A stretch of DNA of 48,713 nucleotides from Sedimentisphaerales bacterium (GTDB lineage: Bacteria > Planctomycetota > Phycisphaerae > Sedimentisphaerales > SM23-30). Positions 27,713 to 41,242 of the stretch are shown piece after piece. Within the stretch, counting starts at the first letter, position 1. Every line of letters begins with the position of its first letter. The stretch spans positions 1 through 48,713 of the forward strand of contig CAXXFK010000017.1 of the NCBI GenBank assembly GCA_963663965.2, given 5' to 3'. The notes beneath the pieces are model-generated. The model worked only from the letters and a program-made list of their open reading frames with translations. It was not told the DNA's origin and searched no databases. Position numbers and translations under genes: made by a program.

Positions 27713-27786
27713 GGGCGATTAGCTCAGTTGGCTAGAGCACCAGCTCGACAAGCTGGGGGTCACTGGTTCAAGTCCAGTATCGCCCA
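27713..27786 (+). tRNA. tRNA-Val(GAC)
   Basis: GGGCGAT/ATCGCCC acceptor stem, D-arm AGCTCAGTTGGCTAGAGC, anticodon arm CCAGC-TCGACAA-GCTGG, T-loop GGTTCAAGTCC, discriminator A; CCA not encoded. Confidence 0.96.
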
Positions 27787-27797
27787 TTCATAAACCT

Positions 27798-27840
27798 AAG
27801 AAAGCCAAGAAGTTACAAAACTCCTTGGCTTTCTTTTTTT
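27798..27840 (+). terminator. Intrinsic terminator after the tRNA (possibly bidirectional)
   Basis: AAGAAAGCCAAG-aAGTT-acaa-AACTc-CTTGGCTTTCTT followed by a T-run. Confidence 0.75.
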
Positions 27841-27888
27841 ATTTTATATGAAAATTATGACAGTTTCGTGTCATAATTGCCTTTTCTA

Positions 27889-28623
27889 TTACCCTTTTTT
27901 CATCGTCTTAAGCATCACCAACTTCCCTTCCTCATCCTTATATTTCCAAAAGGTCCAGCCGTTGGTGGCTTTGCCGCCGCGAATGGCGCTGCCGGCGGCG
28001 GAGGGAGTGTCGTAAAGGGTGTTTTTATAAACGATGCCACCGTTGGCTTTGAGCCAGGCTTTGTAGCCTTGGCCCTGATAGGTGGCGTAGATCATCTTGC
28101 CGCCTGGGAAAAAGCCTTTAAGTGGGCGTTTGGATTCAGATCGGGTATTGGATTTGTTCTTGATCGCTTTAATGGGCCGGGGGTTGGCGATTTTCTTCTT
28201 GGCCGGCTTGCCGTCATCCCAAAGGTCATTGAGGTCTCGTTCCTGACTGAGTTTGACCAGGCGTTTCAGTTCAGGCAGCAGATTGTCGGAGCCGGTGAGC
28301 TTACCTTTCTGGTGGTTGCCTTGCGGAAAAGCGATTCGGAGCAATAACGATTCGAGCTCTTTAATATGATCGCTATGCCGGATAATATACAGACTAAAAT
28401 GGGTCCATTTGCCCTGATGACGATCTTTGAGGTGGTGTTTGATACGGTTCCTCAGATTACTGGCCAGGCCGACATAATAGAGTTTCTGACCACGGTACAG
28501 GGCGTAGATGCCCTGATGGCCTTTGATCATATCGGTGATTTCGCGCTGGTATTTGGTGAAGACATCTGCGTTGATCTTTTCCAGATGGCCTGTCACCAAC
28601 GAATGTATTTTGTTCTTAGCCAT
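27889..28623 (-). CDS. GIY-YIG nuclease fused to a RAMA/DUF4357-like C-terminal domain
   Basis: GIYALY..YYVGLASNLRNRIKHH..ELESLL; C-terminal YDTPSAAGSAIRGGKATNGWTFWK. Confidence 0.8.
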   Translation of the reverse strand: MAKNKIHSLVTGHLEKINADVFTKYQREITDMIKGHQGIYALYRGQKLYYVGLASNLRNRIKHHLKDRHQGKWTHFSLYIIRHSDHIKELESLLLRIAFPQGNHQKGKLTGSDNLLPELKRLVKLSQERDLNDLWDDGKPAKKKIANPRPIKAIKNKSNTRSESKRPLKGFFPGGKMIYATYQGQGYKAWLKANGGIVYKNTLYDTPSAAGSAIRGGKATNGWTFWKYKDEEGKLVMLKTMKKG

Positions 28624-28653
28624 ACGATCCCTTCAAATGTTATCGTGCCTGTT

Positions 28654-30132
28654 TCATCCCTCCAGCTTTCTTACCAATTCCCGAAACCCTTCCAGCCCCG
28701 CCTCAAGGTTCTCCACAATCTCCGCCGCCAGGACATCCGGATCAGGCAGGTTATCCAGATCCGCCAGACTGTCATCCTTCAGCCAGAAGATATCCAGGCT
28801 GGTCTTGTCCCGCGCCATGATCTCATCATACCCAAACTTCCGCCACCGCCCTTCCGGCCGCTTCTCCGACCAGGTAGCCTTGCGTTTATGGCGATTCTCC
28901 GGCTTATAACACGCCACAAACTCGGCCAGATCCTCATATTTCAGCGGATCCTTCTTCAGCGTAAAGTGGATATTCGTCCGGAAGTCATAAATCCACACAT
29001 CCTTCGTCCACGGCTTATCCGCGCCCGGCTTCTTGTCGAAGAAGATCACATTCGCCTTCACACCCTGCCGATAGAATATCCCGGTCGGCAGCCGCAAGAT
29101 CGTATGCAGATCAGTCGTCGCCAGCAGCTTTTTGCGGACCGTCTCGCCCGCGCCCCCCTCAAACAGCACATTATCCGGCACCACCACCGCCGCCTGGCCC
29201 TCAATCTTGAGCATCGTACATATCTGCTGCACAAAATTAAGCTGCTTATTACTCGTCGTCGCCCAGAAATCCTGCCGGTTATAGGTCAGATCCTCCTTCT
29301 CCTGCTCACCTTCGGCGTTGGTAATGGTCATACTGCTCTTTTTGCCAAACGGCGGATTGGTCAGCACATAATCATAACGCCGCCCACTATCCGCGATCAG
29401 CGAATCATCCGGCGCAATCAGCGACTGCCCGTCCAGCTCACCGATATTATGCAGATACAGGTTCATCAGCGCCAGCCGCCGCGTATCCGGCACAATCTCA
29501 TTGCCCGAAAAAGTTCCCACCTTCAAAAACTCCTTCTCTTTCTTATTGAGCTTGTGCTGCCCCACCAGATAGTCATAACACGCCAGAAAGAACCCGCCCG
29601 TCCCACACGCCGGATCGGCAATCGTCTTCATCGGCTCCGGCCGCACACACGCCACCATCGCCCGGATCAGCGCCCGCGGCGTAAAATACTGACCCGCGCC
29701 GCTCTTGACATCCTCCGCGTTCTTCTCCAGCAGCCCCTCATAAATATCTCCCTTCACATCGCTGCCCATTACCACCCAGTTCTCCCCGTCGATCATCTGG
29801 ATCAGCTTATACAGCTTGGCCGGGTCCTGGATCTTGTTCTGGCTCTTGGTAAAGATCTGCCCCAGCATCCCCTTGCTCTTGCCCAGCTCCAGCAGCGTCT
29901 CGATATAATGCACTTCCAGCTCCGCCCCCCGCTTCCCGCGCAGCGCCGCCCAGTTATACTTTTTCGGAATCCCCATATCCCGGCCATACGGCGGCTTCCC
30001 ATACTCATCTGCCATCTTCAAAAACAGCAGATAAGTCAACTGCTCCAGATAATCGCCATACCCCACCCCATCATCACGGAGCATATTACAGTAATTCCAT
30101 ACCTTCGATACAATTGCGGCTGTCGGTGTCAT
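28654..30132 (-). CDS. hsdM: Type I R-M N6-adenine methyltransferase subunit M
   Basis: YLEQLTYLLFLKM, GAGQYFTPR, DPACGTGGF, NPPF, VVVPDNVLFEGG. Confidence 0.97.
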   Translation of the reverse strand: MTPTAAIVSKVWNYCNMLRDDGVGYGDYLEQLTYLLFLKMADEYGKPPYGRDMGIPKKYNWAALRGKRGAELEVHYIETLLELGKSKGMLGQIFTKSQNKIQDPAKLYKLIQMIDGENWVVMGSDVKGDIYEGLLEKNAEDVKSGAGQYFTPRALIRAMVACVRPEPMKTIADPACGTGGFFLACYDYLVGQHKLNKKEKEFLKVGTFSGNEIVPDTRRLALMNLYLHNIGELDGQSLIAPDDSLIADSGRRYDYVLTNPPFGKKSSMTITNAEGEQEKEDLTYNRQDFWATTSNKQLNFVQQICTMLKIEGQAAVVVPDNVLFEGGAGETVRKKLLATTDLHTILRLPTGIFYRQGVKANVIFFDKKPGADKPWTKDVWIYDFRTNIHFTLKKDPLKYEDLAEFVACYKPENRHKRKATWSEKRPEGRWRKFGYDEIMARDKTSLDIFWLKDDSLADLDNLPDPDVLAAEIVENLEAGLEGFRELVRKLEG

Positions 30133-30144
30133 AATAATCCTTTA

Positions 30145-30242
30145 GGTAGGTAAAGCTTCCAGCTTGACAATGTTTCTTTCTTCGCGTTGGCCAAGCTACC
30201 AACTTGACAGTTTTTAAATATCAACCAGGCTGGTTGACCTGC
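30145..30242. repeat. REP cluster 1 (three REP units), downstream of RAYT and upstream of hsdM
   Basis: GTAG-GTAAAGC-TTCCA-GCTTGAC; degenerate GCCAAGC-TACCA-ACTTGAC; inverted unit rc GCAG-GTCAACC-AGCCT-GGTTGAT. Confidence 0.85.
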
Positions 30243-30243
30243 T

Positions 30244-30873
30244 TCATTCCACCTCAATCATCGCCTGACTGAGCATAGCCCTTTCACCGGCTTTTCGCTT
30301 GTTACTTATAATATATTTTCGGTATTTTTCCAGATATAACTGGCCCCTGACTATATGGTCAAACGACTCATGCTGCCATACCGTCCCGCATTGCCCCGAT
30401 AATTCGTTGATCTGGTTGGCCGTATAGGATTTCCAGCTATGCAGAATCCGCTCTAACTCAAAACCTGCCAGTAGCAACATCAGCACATGCACATGATTGG
30501 GCATAATCACCCAATGATCCAGAATATACCTCTGACCCTCAAAATACTCCAACGCCTGCTTCACAATATTCTGACAGTCGCTTTCTCTCAATAGACACTG
30601 CCCATACCCATCATCCAGATATTCTTCCAGTCGGCCATAGAACAGGTTCCGATACTGCTTCTCCTGCTCTTTGGTATATGGAGGGCTGAACAGCAACTTA
30701 AATTTCACCTGCTCCTGACGCAATTTCTCCATCTGCTTTTGCGGGATCGAATCAGCCAGACGGAATGTTATAAAATACACCTTGCCCTGCTGTTCCCAAT
30801 GCGGCAAATGCCGTCGGGTTATATGCGTTCTGTCATCTGGATTGTAAAATATATCACTCATAACAGCCCTCAT
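30244..30873 (-). CDS. REP-associated tyrosine transposase (RAYT, Y1 HUH family)
   Basis: RRHLPHW, YFITFRL, WVIMPNHVH (HUH), WKSYTA, VWQHESFDHIVR..YI..N; REPs on both sides. Confidence 0.9.
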   Translation of the reverse strand: MRAVMSDIFYNPDDRTHITRRHLPHWEQQGKVYFITFRLADSIPQKQMEKLRQEQVKFKLLFSPPYTKEQEKQYRNLFYGRLEEYLDDGYGQCLLRESDCQNIVKQALEYFEGQRYILDHWVIMPNHVHVLMLLLAGFELERILHSWKSYTANQINELSGQCGTVWQHESFDHIVRGQLYLEKYRKYIISNKRKAGERAMLSQAMIEVE

Positions 30874-30932
30874 GGCAGGTCAAGCTTCCTGCTTGACTGT
30901 AAAACAATGTCAACCAGGATGGTTGACCTACC
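30874..30932. repeat. REP doublet (REPIN) 2, upstream of RAYT
   Basis: GCAG-GTCAAGC-TTCCT-GCTTGAC, spacer, then inverted unit rc GTAG-GTCAACC-ATCCT-GGTTGAC. Confidence 0.9.
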
Positions 30933-30935
30933 TTG

Positions 30936-30996
30936 TCACGGAGCATATGACAGTAATTCCATACTTTCGATACGATTGCGGCTGTCGGTGTCATAA
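30936..30996 (-). pseudogene. Remnant copy of the hsdM 5' end (MTPTAAIVSKVWNYCHMLRD)
   Basis: 58/61 nt identical to 30074-30134; ends at REPIN 2. Confidence 0.9.
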
Positions 30997-31083
30997 CTTC
31001 TTTCTATTTAAATAGTTGTATCACATACGCTTTTTGCGTTATTTTTTCCTTACCTTTTGACGATATCTAATATATAATTCATT

Positions 31084-31177
31084 AAGCGGATAAGGCCTGT
31101 ATTGTGCCTGGAGTGCTCCCTTCCATCGGCTGGCTATGAGCTCTGGGATTTGTGGCAATATAGGGTCCGCTTTTTTT
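31084..31177 (+). ncRNA. Candidate structured small RNA convergent with the DUF3800 gene
   Basis: Nested stems AAGCGGA/TCCGCTT, CCTGTATTG/CAATATAGG, CCTGGA/TCTGGG and GCTC/GAGC, then a T7 tract. TATAAT at 31073-31078, with TTACCT 17 bp upstream. Confidence 0.65.
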
Positions 31178-31184
31178 ATTGGTT

Positions 31185-31835
31185 TCATTTCAGATATTCT
31201 ATCTCAACACACAGTTTATGGGCATATTTCTCATACCATTCACAATCGTGATGGTTATACTTCCGCGCCACCCCCCAACAGAACAGATCGACTGCCTGTA
31301 AACATAAGCTTTCATGGCTGGTTTGATGGTCAATAAAAAAACCGGTGTTTAACGGCAACCGGGATTCGATGTGACTTCTGAGATAATGATTAAATTCTTG
31401 GATATCTTCCCTGTTCTTACTGCGGTCAACCACCAGCTTGACATTCACCTCGGCCTGTTCTAAAGGCAATTTATCCAGTACCAACCGTGCCAGATAATTG
31501 TACAGGCGCGGCTTGGCCTCTTTCTGCCGCAAATCCGGATTGACTCGGGTTTTATTCAATACGATGGTATATAAATCCCATTGCTCATCGGATATCTGCT
31601 TCAGAAAATAGTCCTTATAATTCAATTCAATTCCAGTTCCTTTAAGCTCTTCAATTCTGCGAGACTTACTCTTGGGCTTGTTCAGTTTCTTCAGGGTTCT
31701 TCTAACAGCCACCTCAATCGCCTTACGGGCAGACGCATTTCGACAGCACAGCAAGGTCACCACAAATTTTCCAGTGGTTTTCGCTTTACTGAAATCAAAA
31801 CCTAAATCCCCAGATTCGTCTAAATAGATATACAA
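31185..31835 (-). CDS. DUF3800 family protein
   Basis: N-terminal YIYLDESGDLG and C-terminal S....LQAVDLFCW signatures; TTG start. Confidence 0.85.
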   Translation of the reverse strand: MYIYLDESGDLGFDFSKAKTTGKFVVTLLCCRNASARKAIEVAVRRTLKKLNKPKSKSRRIEELKGTGIELNYKDYFLKQISDEQWDLYTIVLNKTRVNPDLRQKEAKPRLYNYLARLVLDKLPLEQAEVNVKLVVDRSKNREDIQEFNHYLRSHIESRLPLNTGFFIDHQTSHESLCLQAVDLFCWGVARKYNHHDCEWYEKYAHKLCVEIEYLK

Positions 31836-31847
31836 TAAAATTGCCCT

Positions 31848-32414
31848 TTATAATCCAATATTATCAAACCTGAGAGTCAGCACCTTCGTTGTCACCTTAA
31901 TTACCAACGATACCTCATCACTCGCCTTACTCGGATCAAGCAGCCGGTTTGTCTCCACTCGAACCATCGTAATCAGCTTATCATCTTCCAACAATACATG
32001 ATACGGCTGATGTTTTTCATATACTGCCCTGTCACATATCTGATTCTTATTGACCGGGCATGTCAATGCGTCAAACAGCGTCTTCAAGCGGTTGTCGATA
32101 TCCCCGCGATTGACAATATTGCCGGCCTCATCCTTCCATAGCATCAGAATATCCAGCTCACATACCATATCCAGGTTCGTAGAAACCAATGGCGCAAATC
32201 GTATCCCTTCAAATTCCTTCACCACCGATACTTTATGTTCCAACGGTGGATAAGATAGAAATGCTTCCCGCCCTTCAAGCGGCTTATGTTGCCATAACGC
32301 CTCCATCTGCGGCCGCAAATACTCACGAATCGCTTCCTTTGATTCGGGTTTCCCTGTTGGAGGCAATATGCCATCATATCTAAGATAAAATTCCATAAAT
32401 TTCCATTCAGTCAT
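31848..32414 (-). CDS. Hypothetical protein with RusA-like nuclease motif
   Basis: GDIDNRLKTLFDAL..LLEDDKLI matches the RusA D-x-D-N-x-x-K-x-x-x-D..DD pattern. Confidence 0.6.
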   Translation of the reverse strand: MTEWKFMEFYLRYDGILPPTGKPESKEAIREYLRPQMEALWQHKPLEGREAFLSYPPLEHKVSVVKEFEGIRFAPLVSTNLDMVCELDILMLWKDEAGNIVNRGDIDNRLKTLFDALTCPVNKNQICDRAVYEKHQPYHVLLEDDKLITMVRVETNRLLDPSKASDEVSLVIKVTTKVLTLRFDNIGL

Positions 32415-32415
32415 A

Positions 32416-32473
32416 GTATGTCAAGCTTCCAGCTTGACATAAACCCAATGTCAACCAGGATGATTAACCTGCC
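32416..32473. repeat. REP doublet (REPIN) 3
   Basis: GTAT-GTCAAGC-TTCCA-GCTTGAC, spacer, then inverted unit rc GCAG-GTTAATC-ATCCT-GGTTGAC; same family as the RAYT-flanking REPs. Confidence 0.85.
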
Positions 32474-33564
32474 TTATCACTAAATATACCATAGTAATAC
32501 ATACCGTTATCGTTTTTTCTTTCGTCTTTTCACTTTAGATTTACTTCCAGGAAAACTGTTTGCCTTTTTCTCGATATTAGCTTTTGCCAGATTTTGTGTT
32601 CTAGCGATTTCGACAACACCAACAGCAACATTATCGTAAATGGAAGTTGTCACCACAGAAAATGGGTGCTCAAATATTTCTTCAAAGGCTTTGGGGAATC
32701 CTGGATAATTTCGCAGTTCTTTAAATAATGGCCATTTTCGATATGCCAACTCATTAAAACGATCATTTTTTCCAATTTTTTTCATTAATTTAATTGTACT
32801 TTCATATTCTTCTAATAACACGCACTTGGCCATTTTAAACATATCAGACAAAGGTTCCCAATCGATATCTTCTAATATCTTCTTACAACTATCATTGTCA
32901 CCTTGCCATTTATATACTTGCGCTTTATTAATGAGAAGTGGTAGTGTATTTGAATCATGTGTATTAGACGGATAATTATTTAATAAATAATCCAGGATAT
33001 TCATTGCTATCTTGTATTGTTGTTCACAAATCAAATCAACACATATGGCATTTACATATTCTACAATGTTGTTTTTTGTCTCATTATACAGTTTCAATCA
33101 GACAAGAATTGCAAGCTTAAGCCCAACCTCTTCAATCACATTGCAAGCATGCACATGATAGCTATGCTGAACCATAAGATCGCATCCTACCGTCAAATCA
33201 GTTGACAGTTTATAACCAATTTCTTTGCAACAATTAATATATTGCATGGTCACCTTGCCATCCGAATGAACAAATAAATTCCGTCTTTGCGTTATTTCAA
33301 CAAATTCTTTTATTATTTGTTCCTTGTCATAAGAATTACCAAACCCTCTTTTTTCAAACCAATGCAATTGCTCAAGGTGGTTATCGCGTAATACCTCATC
33401 GATTTCTGAATCAATAATTGCCTTCTTGGCATCTTCAAAACTATTGTAAGACAGTATTTCTGATATGTATAATACTCCCCAAAAACTGGACAAAAAAACG
33501 GTGATTTTTAGATGGAATTGCCGCCTGAACCGATTGAATAATTCGTATTCAGGAGACAGTTTTA

Positions 33565-33855
33565 ATGAAAGGCAAACGGCGAAATCACAGTGCCCAGTTT
33601 AAGGCGAAAGTGGCCCTGGCCGCCCTGAAGGGCGACAAGACGCTGGCGGAGTTGGCCAAGGTTTACCAGGTACACCCGACTCAGGTTACCCAGTGGAAAA
33701 AGGAGCTTTTGAATGCCTTGCCGGAGATCTTTTCTCTGAGGCGCCACCAGGATCAGCGCGAGCAGCAGGCTTTGGTGGATCAGTTATATCAGCAGATCGG
33801 CCAACTCACGATGGAGTTGGACTGGCTTAAAAAAAAATCCGGGCTTGACACTTGA
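33565..33855 (+). CDS. IS3 transposase OrfA (HTH)
   Basis: RRNHSAQFKAKVALAAL..TLAELA..VHPTQVTQWK..LYQQIGQL..WLKKK; A9 run at 33829-33837. Confidence 0.92.
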   Translation: MKGKRRNHSAQFKAKVALAALKGDKTLAELAKVYQVHPTQVTQWKKELLNALPEIFSLRRHQDQREQQALVDQLYQQIGQLTMELDWLKKKSGLDT

Positions 33856-34771
33856 GCAGAAGCGCCTGGCGATAGAGCCGGGCCATCCCCGGATTCCGAT
33901 CGATCGTCAGTGTGAACTGCTGGGCCTGGCCCGCAGTAGTTACTATTATCGTCCCTGCCGGGACACGGAGTACCATGAGAGTCTGATGCGGCTATTGGAT
34001 GAACAATACCTCAAAACCCCTTGTTACGGGGTTGACAAGATGACGCAGTGGCTGCGTCGTCAAGGCCACATCGTCAATCCGAAGCGCGTGCGCCGTTTGC
34101 TCCGGCTGATGGGCTTAGAAGCGATTTATCCGCGCGTTAAGCGGCATTTGAGCCAACCGGACCCGGCCCACAAGATTTATCCCTACCTGCTTGATGGGGT
34201 GGTGGTTACCCGGCCGAACCAGGTCTGGTCGACCGATATTACCTATATCCGCATGTCTCAGGGCTGGGTGTACTTAACGGCGGTCATGGATTGGTTCAGC
34301 CGTTATGTGTTAAGCTGGGAAGTTTCGATCACGCTGGAGGCCGATTTTTGCGTATCGGCGTTGGAGCAGGCGCTGGGCCAGGGCACCCCGGAGATCTTCA
34401 ATACGGATCAGGGCAGCCAATTTACATCAGTGGATTTTATCCGGCCCTTGAAAGATGCCGGGATTTTAATCAGCATGGATGGCCGGGGCCGGGTATTTGA
34501 CAACATATTTGTCGAACGGTTATGGCGTTCGGTCAAGGTGGAGGAGGTCTATCTGCGAGATTACCAGACGGTGGCCGAGGCGGTGTTAGGCCTGGGCCGC
34601 TATTTTGAGTTTTACAATCATGAACGGCTGCACGAGGCCCTGGGATACCTTACCCCGGCCGAGGTGTTCGCCGGGGCTGTCGCCCCTCCAGTCGCCCTCC
34701 GGGCTCCTTCCGGGGCGACAGCCCCCACCGTGGCGATAACTCCATCTAAGAAAGTCAATATTTTTGTCTAG
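33845..34771 (+). CDS. IS3 transposase OrfB (DDE/rve)
   Basis: WSTDITYI, FNTDQGSQF, DNIFVERLWRSVKVE, YNHERLH. Confidence 0.93.
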   Translation: MTLEQKRLAIEPGHPRIPIDRQCELLGLARSSYYYRPCRDTEYHESLMRLLDEQYLKTPCYGVDKMTQWLRRQGHIVNPKRVRRLLRLMGLEAIYPRVKRHLSQPDPAHKIYPYLLDGVVVTRPNQVWSTDITYIRMSQGWVYLTAVMDWFSRYVLSWEVSITLEADFCVSALEQALGQGTPEIFNTDQGSQFTSVDFIRPLKDAGILISMDGRGRVFDNIFVERLWRSVKVEEVYLRDYQTVAEAVLGLGRYFEFYNHERLHEALGYLTPAEVFAGAVAPPVALRAPSGATAPTVAITPSKKVNIFV

Positions 34772-35188
34772 ACAATGGGGAGGGGTACAATGGTCAATTG
34801 CCGTTTTGATCCTTTAACCATTTCTGGCTTACTATCATAAATAAGCCCAATCATATCTGCGATTAACTTATCATATATATTAACCAGATTAATTATACCA
34901 TTTCTTGGTAACAGCTTGTTCGCTATAGATATCCTGCCTAATTTCCTTAAATCATTTTCAAACTGAATATAAGTCTCAGAATCTTTTATTTCATAAGATA
35001 ATGCTCCTTCTTGATCACTGGGAATTTTGTGTATATTGTATTTCTCAATAAACTTTTTATTAATCCCATTTTTCATTAGAGAAAGACTACCTGAAATTGC
35101 ATCAAATATTGTCCGGATACAATCAATAGATTCAGTAAACTCTCTGATAACATCCTTAAATACGATACTTATGTCACCACCACTATTA

Positions 35189-36706
35189 TCAGACATCATT
35201 TGCTCCTTTCTTTATTCTCTTTAATAACTCCTCCGCCGGCTCATCATTTAGGTTCTGCTCCACCAGCTTCCCTTCAAACGCCCGCTTCAAAATACTCTGA
35301 CGCATCAATTCCGCTTTTTTTAAGCCATCCTCAATGGCCTCTTCAAGCTTTTCACAAACCGATAGACGAGATTCAATCTCACCAACAACTTGGTTTTGTT
35401 CTTCTCTTAAAGCATAAGGAAACGGGTATTGCTTGAGTTTTTCTCCATTGATATTCGATTGATTCACACCATCCGTTTTAACCTTATTCCCATGATTCTT
35501 GGCAACTATACTGTTCAAATAATAGTTCAAGTAGTCGGGGTTAACCATATCATCTATTTGATTTACTCGTATTAAATACCCTGCAAATATTGCGTCTCTT
35601 CCACCTCTAAAGATTGCAGTTTTCCCAACGAGTTCTGGACTGTTGGTTCTATTGAATAATACATCATTCTTTTTAAGCATATATTTTTCGATCTCTTGTT
35701 TGTCATCAGAATAAACCAAATCAGTCCAATCAATCTTTCCATTCTGAATATTACCCATACGAACAACTGGAACATCTCCACTTTCCTTAGATTTAGCCGA
35801 AGTACCATACTCCACCCCTAAAGTACAATCTCCAACCTTCACCCACCCCCACCCCTCGGGCAATTCGGGCAACTTCGCCAGTTCCTCTTTCGTCAGCGGT
35901 GCTACCTCCTTGATCTTTATTGGCCGGGCCGGTTTCTTCCCCTTTTTGCCATTGGCCTCCCACGCCGCGGTCTGCTTTTCCCACTCTGCTACCTGTTTGC
36001 GGTAATGGTCCTGCCGTTCGGTGCGGATGCGGGCCAGGAGGGTTTCGGCCGGTTCCAGCTTGTCGCGGTTCTCCTGTCGCCACCGCTCCGTCAGCTTCCC
36101 CTCAAACGCGCTTTTGAGCACCGCCTGACGATACACCTTCAACTGATCCCGCGCCGCCTGCAACGACCCCACCGCCGCATCCAGATCCGAAAATAACTCC
36201 TCTAACTTCGCCACAATCCGATACTGCTCGGCAAGAGGAGGAAGAGGAATTAGAATTGCTTCGATTCTCTTACCGGATATATTGGGCTGGGCTCCACCAT
36301 AAGCATCTATCTCTATTTGATCTTTACAGACATACAATAAATAATACACATATTTCTTGCATATCAATTTATCCGAATATAATTTCAAATTGCCTACTCG
36401 CTGATTTTGATACGATTTATCATTTGACCTATAAATACCAAACTTTCCAGTCGTAGCTCCAGACATAGCAATAAGAATATCATCTTTTTCGATCTGATAG
36501 TCTTTATAAATATCTTCAGATTGAATTCTAACAGCATTCTCTGTTTTAACCCCCCCTTCCTGGATATCCGATATCCTTACAACTGGAACACCTTGCTTCA
36601 CAAAACAACTACTTTTGAAAGCATATCCATTCTTTAAGAAGAGGATGTCACCAAAGCTGCATTGTATCCATCCATTGGGTAAAAGCATATTTGCAATCTG
36701 AACCAT
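35189..36706 (-). CDS. hsdS: Type I R-M specificity subunit S
   Basis: Two TRDs opened by LPNGW and LPEGW; conserved PLPPLAEQYRIV and RQAVLKSAFEGKL / RQSILKRAFEGKLV repeats. Confidence 0.95.
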   Translation of the reverse strand: MVQIANMLLPNGWIQCSFGDILFLKNGYAFKSSCFVKQGVPVVRISDIQEGGVKTENAVRIQSEDIYKDYQIEKDDILIAMSGATTGKFGIYRSNDKSYQNQRVGNLKLYSDKLICKKYVYYLLYVCKDQIEIDAYGGAQPNISGKRIEAILIPLPPLAEQYRIVAKLEELFSDLDAAVGSLQAARDQLKVYRQAVLKSAFEGKLTERWRQENRDKLEPAETLLARIRTERQDHYRKQVAEWEKQTAAWEANGKKGKKPARPIKIKEVAPLTKEELAKLPELPEGWGWVKVGDCTLGVEYGTSAKSKESGDVPVVRMGNIQNGKIDWTDLVYSDDKQEIEKYMLKKNDVLFNRTNSPELVGKTAIFRGGRDAIFAGYLIRVNQIDDMVNPDYLNYYLNSIVAKNHGNKVKTDGVNQSNINGEKLKQYPFPYALREEQNQVVGEIESRLSVCEKLEEAIEDGLKKAELMRQSILKRAFEGKLVEQNLNDEPAEELLKRIKKGANDV

Positions 36707-36707
36707 A

Positions 36708-38489
36708 TTATTTTGATAATTCCTTCAGCAACCATTCTAATTGACTGTTTGCATCACATATAATGCGATCATAAGACAAGAATTTAATATCAGGCTGCTC
36801 GTAATGCGCTGACATATTCGAATCTATCTTACCTCCGATAACCATTATGTCAAAAGCTTGACTGAGATGCGTTGTTAAGTCATCACGATATTTTTTTGCC
36901 TGGGCCTCGACATCTCTACCGATTTTATCACTTGGCCTTTTGAATTCGATAAGTAAATACTTCCCAAAAACATTTTGAGTTAGTAATAAATCCGGTCGAT
37001 TATTCTTTCTTTTTCCCGTATATTCTTTTTTTCCATATTCTTCGATTATTTTTTTGGTCGTTTTATTTGATGCCATAATTGAATACTGAACTCCTAATAT
37101 CCATAAATTTTCTTCAAACGCTTTATGCATTTGTATTTCGAGTGTTTCTTTATTGGACACTAGGTCACCCAAATACTCTAGAAATCTAAGCCGACTCCTT
37201 GCCTGAGAACACATCGTGGCCATATCAACTATGCCAAATTCATTTAGAGATTCAGCAAATAGCATAACATCAGAATTCTTAGCTTCTTCGATTTTTTTCA
37301 GAACTGTCCAATACTCATCTTTTTCCATAGCGTCTAATATGAAACTGATAACAACATCTACCCTCTCTTGGGTGTCTCCATAAAATTTTGTTAGTATATA
37401 ATCGAGTTGTTTCTCGGCATATTTTCTTCTGTACTCTGGCAATGCCGATAATCTTTTATTAATCTCCCTTTTTCTTTTCGCTTTTATTCTGTCAATATCA
37501 GCTTTATATAATTTATGTAGCTGTTTTTTTAATTGTGGCCGTACCCAATTTTTAATTTCTTCATACGCTTTGCTATTTGCTATTAAACTACTCCAATCAG
37601 CAGTGATATCCTCTTCAGGAATATTATCCGCTTGAATTTCTCCAGCTATCCTTCGTAGCAGCCTTGTTGGTATCTCCTCATCCTCATCTAGACCAAAAAA
37701 TAATGGCTGACCTATTATTTTATTGTTAACCCTAATAACAATGCCGGCTTGATTCTTTTGTATTGGTTTTTCTAAAACTGAAAACCCGATCTTAATAGGG
37801 CCAGCATTTTGCAAATTGCATTCGTTCGATATTTGATCACCAGGTATATCTTGCGCTTTCAACATTTCTGAGTTGACATATACTTTAAAACCCACTTCTC
37901 TACCATATTCCAAGACAAGTCTTTCTTTTAGTCTTTCAACTAAAGGGAAATTCAATCTTTGATTAAGCTTCTTTAGTACAATCGTTGTCCCATGTTCATT
38001 GCTGTCACATTCTTGAATATTAATCGGTAAGTCAATTTTTTCAATATCTCTCTTTGATTTTACCAATAATATTTTATCTACAATCAAAGAGACTTCTTGA
38101 CCTCTTGACTTCGTTTTCAGATCCATAATATCTGCCATAATGAATCCCGCGAACTTTCCAATTCCCTTTCGACCTTTGACTTTTCTTCCCTTTTGAGTCT
38201 TTTCACCTTTTCTTGATATTCTATCGCTTGCAATTTTTAAATATTCTAACTCCACCTCTTTTATGGTCATGCCGCATCCATCATCTTTTATGATTATTGG
38301 TTGATCAGTGAATGGTTCTGGAAGATCAATCCAAACATTCTCTGCGTCTGCATCCCAAGCGTTATCGACGAGTTCTTTAATAGCATCTTCTGATGATCGA
38401 TAGTTCTCACCTAATATACTCGCCAAACGCGTATCAACTTTAAAATGTACTTTTTTGATCGTTTTTTTTTCTTTTTTTGTCATGTTCAT
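36708..38489 (-). CDS. GHKL (HATPase_c/MORC-like) ATPase fused to a C-terminal PD-(D/E)xK nuclease
   Basis: AIKELVDNAWDADA, DDGCGM, GRKGIGKFAG, HGTTI; C-terminal RPDLLL..LLIEFKRP..QAKKY. Confidence 0.85.
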   Translation of the reverse strand: MNMTKKEKKTIKKVHFKVDTRLASILGENYRSSEDAIKELVDNAWDADAENVWIDLPEPFTDQPIIIKDDGCGMTIKEVELEYLKIASDRISRKGEKTQKGRKVKGRKGIGKFAGFIMADIMDLKTKSRGQEVSLIVDKILLVKSKRDIEKIDLPINIQECDSNEHGTTIVLKKLNQRLNFPLVERLKERLVLEYGREVGFKVYVNSEMLKAQDIPGDQISNECNLQNAGPIKIGFSVLEKPIQKNQAGIVIRVNNKIIGQPLFFGLDEDEEIPTRLLRRIAGEIQADNIPEEDITADWSSLIANSKAYEEIKNWVRPQLKKQLHKLYKADIDRIKAKRKREINKRLSALPEYRRKYAEKQLDYILTKFYGDTQERVDVVISFILDAMEKDEYWTVLKKIEEAKNSDVMLFAESLNEFGIVDMATMCSQARSRLRFLEYLGDLVSNKETLEIQMHKAFEENLWILGVQYSIMASNKTTKKIIEEYGKKEYTGKRKNNRPDLLLTQNVFGKYLLIEFKRPSDKIGRDVEAQAKKYRDDLTTHLSQAFDIMVIGGKIDSNMSAHYEQPDIKFLSYDRIICDANSQLEWLLKELSK

Positions 38490-41242
38490 GCTGCTAAAAC
38501 CTCATTCAATTCATCCAAAATTCTGTCCAGGTCATCGCCAAAGAGTTGATACATGCGCGCCAGTCCGCCCGCCGCGTCAAAGGGTGCGTAATCCAGATCG
38601 TCCCGGTCGATATGAAAGCTGCCGGCCACATGGTCTTTGATCATCCGCAGCCAGGCCATCTGCTCTTCGCTGAACTTGGCCTGGTCGCCGGCGTGTTTGC
38701 CGAACACCCACTGCTGAAAATTCCGGTTCACCGTCGCTTCATAACTGGTCAGGGCGCTATCGATCCCCAGCGTGCGCCGGATGAGCGAAACCAGCATGGT
38801 CAGTTCCTTTTCCGGAGTGGTCCCGTTGACCTTCTCAACCTGATGATACGCCTGCCACAGCGCCGCGGGGTGCAGTTGGGGCGCCCGCTGCCGCAGGATG
38901 TCCATGCACTCGTTCACCATGGTAAAGGTCAGCTCCCGCCGTCGCCAGGGCTGGCTGTAATAAATCGACAGGGCCATAATCTCATCCTTATGGGCCTCGA
39001 TAAACGCCGCGAAGTCGGCTATTAGCCCCTGGGCGTGTTCCCGCGTCTGGGCGTTCCAGCCGCTGTAAGTCACCTCATCCAGGTTGACCGTGTCGATAAT
39101 CTGCTCAAGCGACTTGCGGACATCTTCTACAAACCCGTTTAGCTCACCTGTAAACGGTGCCCGCGCCTCCTTCGCCAGTTCGCTCTGCGCCTGTTTCAGT
39201 TGCCCTTCATCCGGCACCGCCTCCGGCCCCAGCTTAAACAGCCGCCGGGCCACCTCCTCCTGCCGGTCGGGGTTGTGGGTATCCAATAGTTGCGTGGCGA
39301 CGGTACTGATGGACCGCCCGCCGGACAGCTCGGCGAATCGCTGGCGCTGCTGCGGCGTTATCTACCGGTCCAGCCGGGTCAAACGGCTGGCCAGACTGCA
39401 AAAGGTATCTTCATCCTCCGCTCCCATCATCGCCGAATAGAGCAGGTCTTTCAACGGTACCGACCGTTTCCGCTCCAGGCCCCGCGATTCGGTCTTGTTC
39501 GTTGTGACCACACCCACCGCGTCCACAATCACAAAATGGGTCTTGCCGCTCACGGCCGAAGGGGTAACCTTCCGCAAGTCATCATATCCCAGCGTCCGTG
39601 TCCCCCGCCCCTTCATCTGCTCAAAATAGTTGCGGCTGCGAACATCGCGCATAAACAGCAGGCATTCCAGCGGCTTGACATCGGTGCCGGTGGCGATCAT
39701 ATCCACCGTTACGGCGATACGCGGGTAATAATCATTGCGAAAACTCGCCAGCAGACTCTTGGAGTCCTCCTCGCTCTGGTAGGTCACCTTTTTGCAGAAT
39801 TCGTTGCCCTCGGCAAATTCTTCGCGCGCGATCTGGATGATATCATCCGCGTGGGAATCGGTCTTGGCAAAGATCAGTGTTTTGGGCGCTTCGTTCCGGC
39901 CCGGAAAAATCGCCGGCAGCGCCTCCCGAAAGGCACGGATCACCTGACGGATCTGGCTCGGATTCACCACATCCCGGTCGAGCTGCCGCCCGGCATAGGT
40001 TAATTCTTCATCCATCTGCTGCCAGCGCCGCTGTCGGGTCAGCCGGTTGCGTTTGTCCACATATTCGCCCACCTTCAGCGTACTGCCCTGGTGGGTTATG
40101 GCGGTTTCGATGGTGTAGATGTCGTATCCTACATTCACCCCATCCGCCACCGCCTGTTCGTGGGTGTACTCGCTGACAATATTCTCATTGAAAAAGCCAA
40201 AAGTCCGCTGATCCGGCGTCGCAGTCAATCCAATCAAAAACGCGTCGAAATACTCCAGTACCTGCCGCCAGATATTGTAAATCGACCGGTGGCATTCATC
40301 GATAATGATAAAATCGAAAAACTCCGGTCCGACTTTGGTATTGTAGGCCACCTCCCGCGGCCGGCCGGTATCGCGAAATTCGTTGGGATTGGCCAGTTCA
40401 GCCGATTCTTCGAGCTCTTCGCCGCGTAAAATGGAATACATCCGCTGGATCGTGCTGATACAAACCTGGCTGTCCGGCGCTACAAAGCTGCTGCACAGCC
40501 GCCGGACATTGTACAGCTCCGTAAACTTGCGGTTGTCATCGGTGGGCTGATAGGCCATGAACTCCTGCTCGGCCTGCTCGCCCAGGTTTTTGGTATCCAC
40601 CAGAAACAACACCCGCTTGGCGTTGGCGAACTTGAGCAGCCGATAAACCGCGGTAATGGCGGTAAAGGTCTTGCCGCTGCCCGTGGCCATCTGGATCAGC
40701 GAACGGGGCCAGTTGTCTGCAAAGGACCGCTCCAGGTGGGTAATCGCCCGGATCTGACACTCCCGCAATCCATCGGTCATCAGTGTCGGTAGGGTGTGCA
40801 ACCGCGCCCGCAGACTGTCGGGCTGGCCCAGCCATTCCAGCAGGGTTTCGGGCTTATGAAACGAAAAAACCGGCCGCGACCGCGGCTTGGGATCGCGTGT
40901 ATCGGTAAACCGGGTGATTTCGCCGGTACTTTCATAGATAAACGGCAGCGGCTGGCTGTCCGCAATCCATTTGAGCTTACTGCGGGCGTAGGCGCCCGAT
41001 TGATCTTCGTATTGGGTGAGGCGGTGCCCTTCTTCGGGTCGCTTGGCCTCGATCACCCCGCACGGCCGCCGATCCACAAACAGCACATAATCCGCCGGCC
41101 CCGAATCAGTCTGATATTCCCGCACCGCAATGCCCAACGCCGCCCCAAAGTTGATCCGATCCTTCGACTGAACCGCCCACCCCGCCGCTTTCAGCATGGC
41201 GTCAATCTGATCTCGGGCTATCTGTTCCGGGTTCTGATTCAT
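38486..41242 (-). pseudogene. hsdR: Type I restriction subunit R (918 codons) interrupted by one in-frame TAG
   Basis: ADYVLF..IEAK nuclease, MATGSGKT, DECHRS, GLTATP, EQMKGRGTR helicase motifs. TAG at 39362-39364 reads on in frame (ITPQQRQRF..) into the EcoEI-like C-terminal ORF 38486-39286. Confidence 0.9.

Follow-up and report, generated by a model that had tools for sequence, protein, structure and literature searches.

Copies of an hsdM gene start abutting REP doublets beside a RAYT gene: a REPtron variant in a type I restriction-modification operon of a Sedimentisphaerales bacterium

The sequence under study is one whole contig of 48,713 nt (the window below) from a Sedimentisphaerales bacterium with a genome of 7.2 Mb (G000). 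It holds a type I restriction-modification (R-M) operon with two truncated copies of the 5' end of its methyltransferase gene, hsdM, each broken at the same codon against a doublet of repetitive extragenic palindromic (REP) hairpins, or REPIN, and one of them standing directly beside an intact gene for a REP-associated tyrosine transposase (RAYT). The feature is real and represents a variant of the REPtron, whereas the proposal of a first-pass annotation that it is an integron-like array, built by repeated addition of cassettes to hsdM, is without support outside this locus. In the history favoured here, to which we give about even confidence, one RAYT-made junction gave rise to a unit composed of REPIN, RAYT, REPIN and hsdM start that entered the start of hsdM twice, the cargo genes between having come by ordinary R-M recombination.

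On the minus strand the operon runs from hsdR (with an in-frame TAG) through a HATPase-nuclease gene, hsdS and a HEPN-like gene to the far remnant and REPIN1. Downstream of these lie a RusA-like open reading frame (ORF), a DUF3800 gene and a DUF3800-V-like RNA, then the near remnant, REPIN2, RAYT, REPIN3, an extra hairpin and hsdM. Sequence, ORF and Pfam analyses bore out this gene order and the coordinates, both already given in the first-pass annotation (Table 1). A 5.7-kb contig of sequencing run X1 spans 28000-33495 with every letter identical; runs X1 and X2 represent one sample, possibly the assembly's own source, so that this agreement tests the assembly only.

Two remnants of the hsdM start

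The near remnant (30936-30996) is identical to hsdM (30074-30134) at 58/61 nt, and the sequence upstream of it differs from the region of REP and ribosome-binding site that precedes the intact gene. Over codons 1-20 it departs from hsdM by N16H and, if the final base of codon 20 is included, by three synonymous substitutions; histidine stands at residue 16 in 13/30 homologous hsdM starts. The earlier suggestion of a different allele, with a single N>H replacement, thus stood, and the near remnant looks like an allele start that may have worked until recently.

The far remnant is much more decayed, matching hsdM at 16/24 nt without gaps, or at 22 positions of a 31-column alignment with one gap. 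The similarity, put at about 22/32 in the first-pass annotation, is real in spite of these altered figures: it exceeds shuffled controls (p = 1e-4, or 2e-4 to 6e-4 with the AAG excluded) and a profile made from the starts of 30 other hsdM genes ranks it 13th among 8322 positions (p 3.5e-4); it shows no further gain beyond about 34-40 nt. A promoter scan found none at the far remnant. Since the near remnant carries allele-type changes only and the far one is decayed, two separate times are indicated; the reading of the remnants as probable scars of very different age is supported, in line with the earlier view of a new hsdM start downstream and an older, decayed boundary.

Both remnants stop at codon 20 and are followed by AAG and then by the REP foot. 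Since AAG often borders the REPs of relatives at loci unrelated to this one, it belongs to the element, and the junction proper lies between codon 20 and the REP. A shared junction had been claimed before and was confirmed in its position, although AAG falls outside hsdM and the likeness between GGTGGG in hsdM and the GGTAGG foot is not needed to explain it.

The RAYT gene and its REP doublets

The RAYT protein has H127-V-H129 as its HUH motif, a W-Q motif and Y187. It scores 65.8 bits against the NCBIfam model REP_Tyr_transpos (NF047646; cut-off 80) and aligns with Escherichia coli TnpA-REP (4ER8) across HUH, WQ and Tyr, the match being weak (E 0.064). The residues W, Q, E/D, H and R, named for GTAG recognition in PMC6006769, are kept, WQHESFDHIVR aligning with WQ..FWEH.IR of E. 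coli, while the Y---NP signature reads YIISNK, with NK instead of NP. These motifs fit class 2, and by the motif table the nearest subclass is 2.7 (NHVH, WQ, 209 aa).

The gene is flanked by inverted GTAG-foot REPs, a layout shared by its relatives, of which 19 loci were found in a GTDB scan, the closest in Sedimentisphaerales and Phycisphaerae. By search, relatives occur in 69/401 genomes of the class and 10/251 of the order (self included); none was found in plasmids at E 1e-15 and none was confirmed in viral contigs. Stand-alone relatives stand between direct REPIN copies at unrelated loci. A 43-row tree places the RAYT in a supported 8-row clade alongside family RAYTs and others from Sedimentisphaerales and Phycisphaerae, and the copy at locus L002, described below, is not its sister. 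The link between RAYT and the REPs, noted earlier, was upheld in that the gene is intact and REPs of this kind accompany its clade. The idea of a RAYT lineage dedicated to R-M loci is unsupported, as the gene groups in the tree with family RAYTs from other loci.

REPIN1, REPIN2 and REPIN3 share one design (pairwise identities 45/56, 41/56 and 40/56), and the extra hairpin has 17 identical nt in common with the second hairpin of REPIN1; the 7.2-Mb genome yielded no other copy of similar length. The first REP of REPIN2 is identical across 23 nt to the REP beside the L002 RAYT. REPs of this type are confined to this locus within the genome and genome-wide dispersal was not seen; four family genomes carrying a RAYT have 10-28 dispersed matches each to a family REP pattern. 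A few REPs almost identical to the first hairpin of the locus were observed in genomes of family f55 (L101-L107), with no RAYT match in the DNA examined, and one such f55 REP lies just upstream of hsdR in L082.

An in-frame hsdM::RAYT fusion was rejected for the present sequence, in which the RAYT frame is one base off and the second hairpin contains TGA. As a separate observation, RAYT relatives are embedded in 939 proteins of 367-2000 aa (including L008 and L009). Among the best 120 of these 939, selected by score, 104 are internal in-frame inserts and HUH and Tyr are kept in 120/120; no hsdM start was present in 120 of the 939 that were examined for it. The inserts shown as examples are mostly flanked by REP-encoded peptides. 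Their hosts include ValRS, XseA, D-Tyr-tRNA deacylase, radical SAM proteins, carbamoyl-phosphate synthase, HsdR and many R-M methylases.

A history for the locus

The favoured history would start from a REPtron just upstream of hsdM. Such a state, the one predicted as the starting point, is found at L225, where a frameshifted RAYT (45%) within REPIN-RAYT-REPIN occupies the hsdS-hsdM interval cleanly and without a remnant. Cleavage and strand transfer by RAYT away from the REP would then have linked the REP flank to codon 20, so that the start of the gene was taken up. According to PMC3333891, the cuts made by TnpA-REP lie at some distance from REPs, and bacterial interspersed mosaic elements (BIMEs) can incorporate gene fragments.

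The resulting unit, REPIN-RAYT-REPIN, ribosome-binding site and hsdM codons 1-20, would have spread among alleles, most simply by a RecA crossover in the 60-nt homology and possibly by RAYT. The clade's usual occurrence as REPIN-RAYT-REPIN at unrelated loci suggests that the unit moves. With each arrival the resident hsdM start would become a remnant while a new start is supplied, so that hsdM is not lost; because the unit carries its own junction, two identical junctions need one joining event only. The first arrival would have lost its RAYT and the second would be recent, and the RusA-like/DUF3800 block may have arrived via the recombination that fills the hsdS-hsdM interval in most such operons.

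Y1 transposases in other type I R-M operons

Y1 transposases with hairpins recur within type I R-M operons, in many cases next to copies of hsdS 3' ends, and the cases at L002 and in family f55 count in favour of the history above. At L002 (4900-7450) a RAYT (57%) lies between hsdS and hsdR inside seven tandem copies of a segment made of hsdS 3' end and REPIN, the hsdS piece representing an allele other than the resident hsdS (35-55 of 67 nt). In family f55 a different Y1 gene, with subclass 1.2-like motifs, was found between hsdS and hsdM in 9/15 loci, and 5/9 of these have an hsdS-end copy beside the hairpins. The subclass 1.2-like Y1 genes of L082-L085, L087, L126-L128 and L131 are hairpin-flanked, though the subclass is described as generally without terminal structures. 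In L133 the interval from hsdR to hsdS holds a RAYT fragment; upstream of its hsdM an ORF with palindromic flanks was also noted, which we take to be a DUF559-like nuclease gene. As a further point for the favoured history, no copied gene end was recognised at 27 family REP loci outside RAYT and R-M contexts, where genes were not individually annotated.

Tandem copies of an hsd gene end with a hairpin, as held by L002 and f55 loci, together with the amplification models in PMC3333891, bring to mind a local, BIME-type amplification in which hsdM start and REPIN were duplicated in place and later separated by cargo. We regard this as unlikely for the present locus, where the decay of the two remnants is very unequal and the near one shows allele-type changes only and an upstream region unlike that of hsdM.

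Search for the junction elsewhere

The junction was sought with a pattern of degenerate hsdM codons 12-20 plus REP foot, which requires W-N or W-S(AGY) and this REP type and can therefore miss others. Four matches were obtained in metagenomes, none with a REP (0/4): three were hsdM remnants without a REP hairpin, ending in LRD, and one was a chance match. Viral contigs gave 0 matches with the pattern and 0 with a stricter version. When the remnant-plus-REPIN DNA was compared with 24 family genomes, bare REPs only were found, in 2/24, and the junction in 0/24. It was also absent from all 75 hsdM loci surveyed (0/75), made up of 34 of 35 homologue loci (L134 left out; seven with <3.5 kb upstream) and 41/43 further hsdM-start matches from 400 class genomes, with 1.0-2.7 kb upstream and one repeating an earlier locus. 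A protein search with the 46-aa remnant frame, an insensitive one, gave no candidate.

Remnants of hsdM followed by cargo and then by hsdM arise without any REP or RAYT. L095 has an hsdM remnant of 145 nt, broken at about codon 48, then cargo and hsdM, and in L201 a decayed remnant breaks at about codon 32. At L053 (2481-2516), L054 and L056 a REP-free remnant lies downstream of a small gene and ends at the same LRD codon, but these loci were chosen by the search pattern and the shared break point may be meaningless.

These results bear on the integron-like array, in which RAYT would cut hsdM site-specifically at codon 20 and add cassettes of REPIN, cargo and new hsdM start, defence genes included. 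Both segments do have the form of a cassette, both junctions lie at the same base, and the RAYT genes of the clade sit cassette-like between direct REPIN copies; the best point for the array is the start of the RusA-like ORF, 2-20 nt from the end of REPIN1. Against this, there are two units only, one being RAYT itself, at one locus; different cargoes between the same remnant and REPIN borders, as the first-pass annotation would lead one to expect, were seen at none of the hsdM loci; and 0/5 cargo-gene homologues have REP flanks or, in the surrounding DNA examined, a match to hsd proteins. As remnant, cargo and hsdM can come together without REPs, the cargo block need not be a RAYT cassette. 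Repeated addition of REP-bounded cassettes by RAYT is thus likewise unlikely. Equally doubtful is a wider form of the idea, with RAYT as an integrase that would place REPIN-bounded single-stranded cassettes into hsdM codon 20, the hsdS-end arrays of relatives being the work of the same machinery at another gene end.

The least probable explanation, and an improbable one, is that the remnants are scars of ordinary R-M exchange (the swapping of R-M alleles through recombination is described in PMC12829572, and REP-free remnants are known from the five loci above) with REPINs brought up against them in separate events, by a deletion or a locally preferred target: this requires two independent events at one base, whereas L095 and L201 break elsewhere and the other three loci are pattern-selected.

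Several points weigh against the favoured history of a unit that carried one junction in twice. The travelling unit was not seen elsewhere, as no second locus with an hsdM/REP junction was found, and the action of RAYT on these REPs is a prediction. The near junction reads C|A, in agreement with the cleavage sites given in PMC8266576, but the far one reads T|A, and such dinucleotide pairs are common. ATGA follows both REPINs, but since many REPs of the clade are flanked by it, it is a weak candidate for a relic of a RAYT start after REPIN1 and does not prove that a RAYT formerly stood behind this doublet. The f55 genomes are related, so their loci do not count as independent cases. Contigs of depth 2-4 showed no joint at the REPs and no excised circle or empty site, though contigs drop rare variants.

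The operon and its cargo

The type I genes hsdR, hsdS and hsdM are all present in one operon, with hsdM and hsdS open. Given the in-frame stop in hsdR and a HEPN-like gene broken twice, the locus likely methylates without restricting. Beyond the 3' end of hsdM come a GIY-YIG/RAMA gene (27713-28623), which matches PADLOC PDC-S14, and a tRNA gene that forms the island boundary.

Table 1. Features of the operon, with positions in the window
Feature	Position	Strand	Evidence or remarks
hsdM, type I methyltransferase, intact, 492 aa	28654..30132	-	Pfam N6_Mtase and HsdM_N; PADLOC MTase_I E 3e-194
Extra single REP hairpin, inverted	30146..30168	+	GTAG foot on + strand; just before hsdM ribosome-binding site
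REPIN3, REP doublet downstream of RAYT	30187..30242	-	Second hairpin degenerate
RAYT (TnpA-REP-like Y1 HUH transposase), intact, 209 aa	30244..30873	-	Pfam Y1_Tnp 27.5 bits, cut-off 23
REPIN2, two inverted GTAG/GCAG-foot hairpins	30876..30931	-	11-nt spacer; AAG flank 30932-30934
Near hsdM 5' remnant, codons 1-20	30935..30996	-	Own ATG at 30994; own upstream sequence
DUF3800-V-like RNA motif	31079..31176	+	Rfam RF02964, 34.4 bits, below gathering cut-off 37.4; E 6.5e-4
DUF3800 gene, 216 aa	31185..31835	-	Pfam PF12686 E 6.8e-13; weak PADLOC PDC-M04A match
RusA-like ORF, 188 aa	31848..32414	-	Pfam RusA E 0.0098; Atlas lead 0.87
REPIN1, decayed REP doublet	32417..32472	-	45/56 identical to REPIN2; AAG flank 32473-32475
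Far hsdM 5' remnant, decayed, about codons 10-20, ending at codon 20	32476..32505	-	Shuffle and profile tests
HEPN-like gene, three pieces	32507..35199	-	IS3-type element (about 33468-34786) and TGA 33098-33100
hsdS, reading frame open	35189..36706	-	Pfam and PADLOC
HATPase plus nuclease-like gene, between hsdR and hsdS	36708..38489	-	Pfam, PADLOC, NCBIfam
hsdR, in-frame TAG at 39362-39364	38486..41242	-	Same letters in X1 and X2 contigs

Some labels of the first-pass annotation are weaker than they appeared. The 'HEPN' gene has no match to a HEPN hidden Markov model and an Atlas lead of 0.94 to a RiboL-PSP-HEPN cluster, and 'RusA-like' is a similarly weak label. An RNA beside DUF3800 had been proposed, and a DUF3800-V-like motif was indeed recognised, on the plus strand and under the cut-off. 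For the RusA-like ORF, Met7 (32396) is the likely start, in agreement with two homologues on plasmids, and the ORF was found in 0/60 other related genomes; the DUF3800 gene occurs in 1/300 other genomes, and no holder of the RNA was seen among the entries listed.

Comparison with known systems

The locus bears on how RAYTs move and are retained by their hosts. If the favoured history is true, a conserved hsd gene end carried on the unit would give it a safe and repeatable landing site within a frequently exchanged module, and the presence of Y1 transposases in type I R-M operons would be accounted for. REPIN plus codon 20 offers a defined substrate, and if cargo also moved via RAYT, the system would amount to an integron analogue for defence genes that works by HUH chemistry.

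Integrons hold arrays of gene cassettes, with the integrase IntI and the sites attI and attC. The present locus resembles them in that direct copies of a single-strand hairpin site enclose its genes and in the decay of older units away from the point of entry; it differs in its HUH chemistry, in having two units only with no cargo variation seen, and in entry within a coding gene. No Pfam match to an IntI-type tyrosine recombinase was found among 19 ORFs from 27889 to 48230. Integrative elements that enter gene ends and bring a replacement copy likewise preserve the gene and displace a fragment of it, but the present unit has no integrase, measures about 0.86 kb and has REP hairpins at its junction.

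With the exchange hotspots of type I R-M systems (PMC12829572) the locus shares a variable cargo between hsdS and hsdM and allele swaps by recombination; in-register remnants bounded by REPs are not described in the accessible part of that paper. The literature search, which left most subscription papers uncovered, turned up no account of RAYT/REP units accompanied by copies of hsd gene ends. A REP within an N-6 methylase is recorded in the text supplements of PMC3733652, where the portions available do not contain 'hsd', and TnpA-REP was placed beside lanthipeptide genes in 10.1101/2020.03.09.984088, a causal link being withdrawn by its authors.

The closest likeness is to REPtrons, as represented by E. 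coli TnpA-REP (4ER8) and described by Ton-Hoang 2012 (PMC3333891), Quentin 2018 (PMC6006769) and Corneloup 2021 (PMC8266576), in which the same kind of Y1 HUH gene lies between inverted GTAG-foot hairpin doublets. PMC3333891 also reports that BIMEs capture fragments of the genes flanking them and that tnpA-REP is lost or replaced (by hicAB in E. coli). RAYT genes are described as domesticated and vertically inherited in PMC5581495 and PMC3333891, and E. coli REPtrons are said not to move as a unit, whereas the RAYT clade studied here occurs at several unrelated loci. The locus is further set apart from REPtrons in that its REPs are restricted to one place in the genome and that, within a type I R-M operon, its unit lies against copied starts of a host gene.

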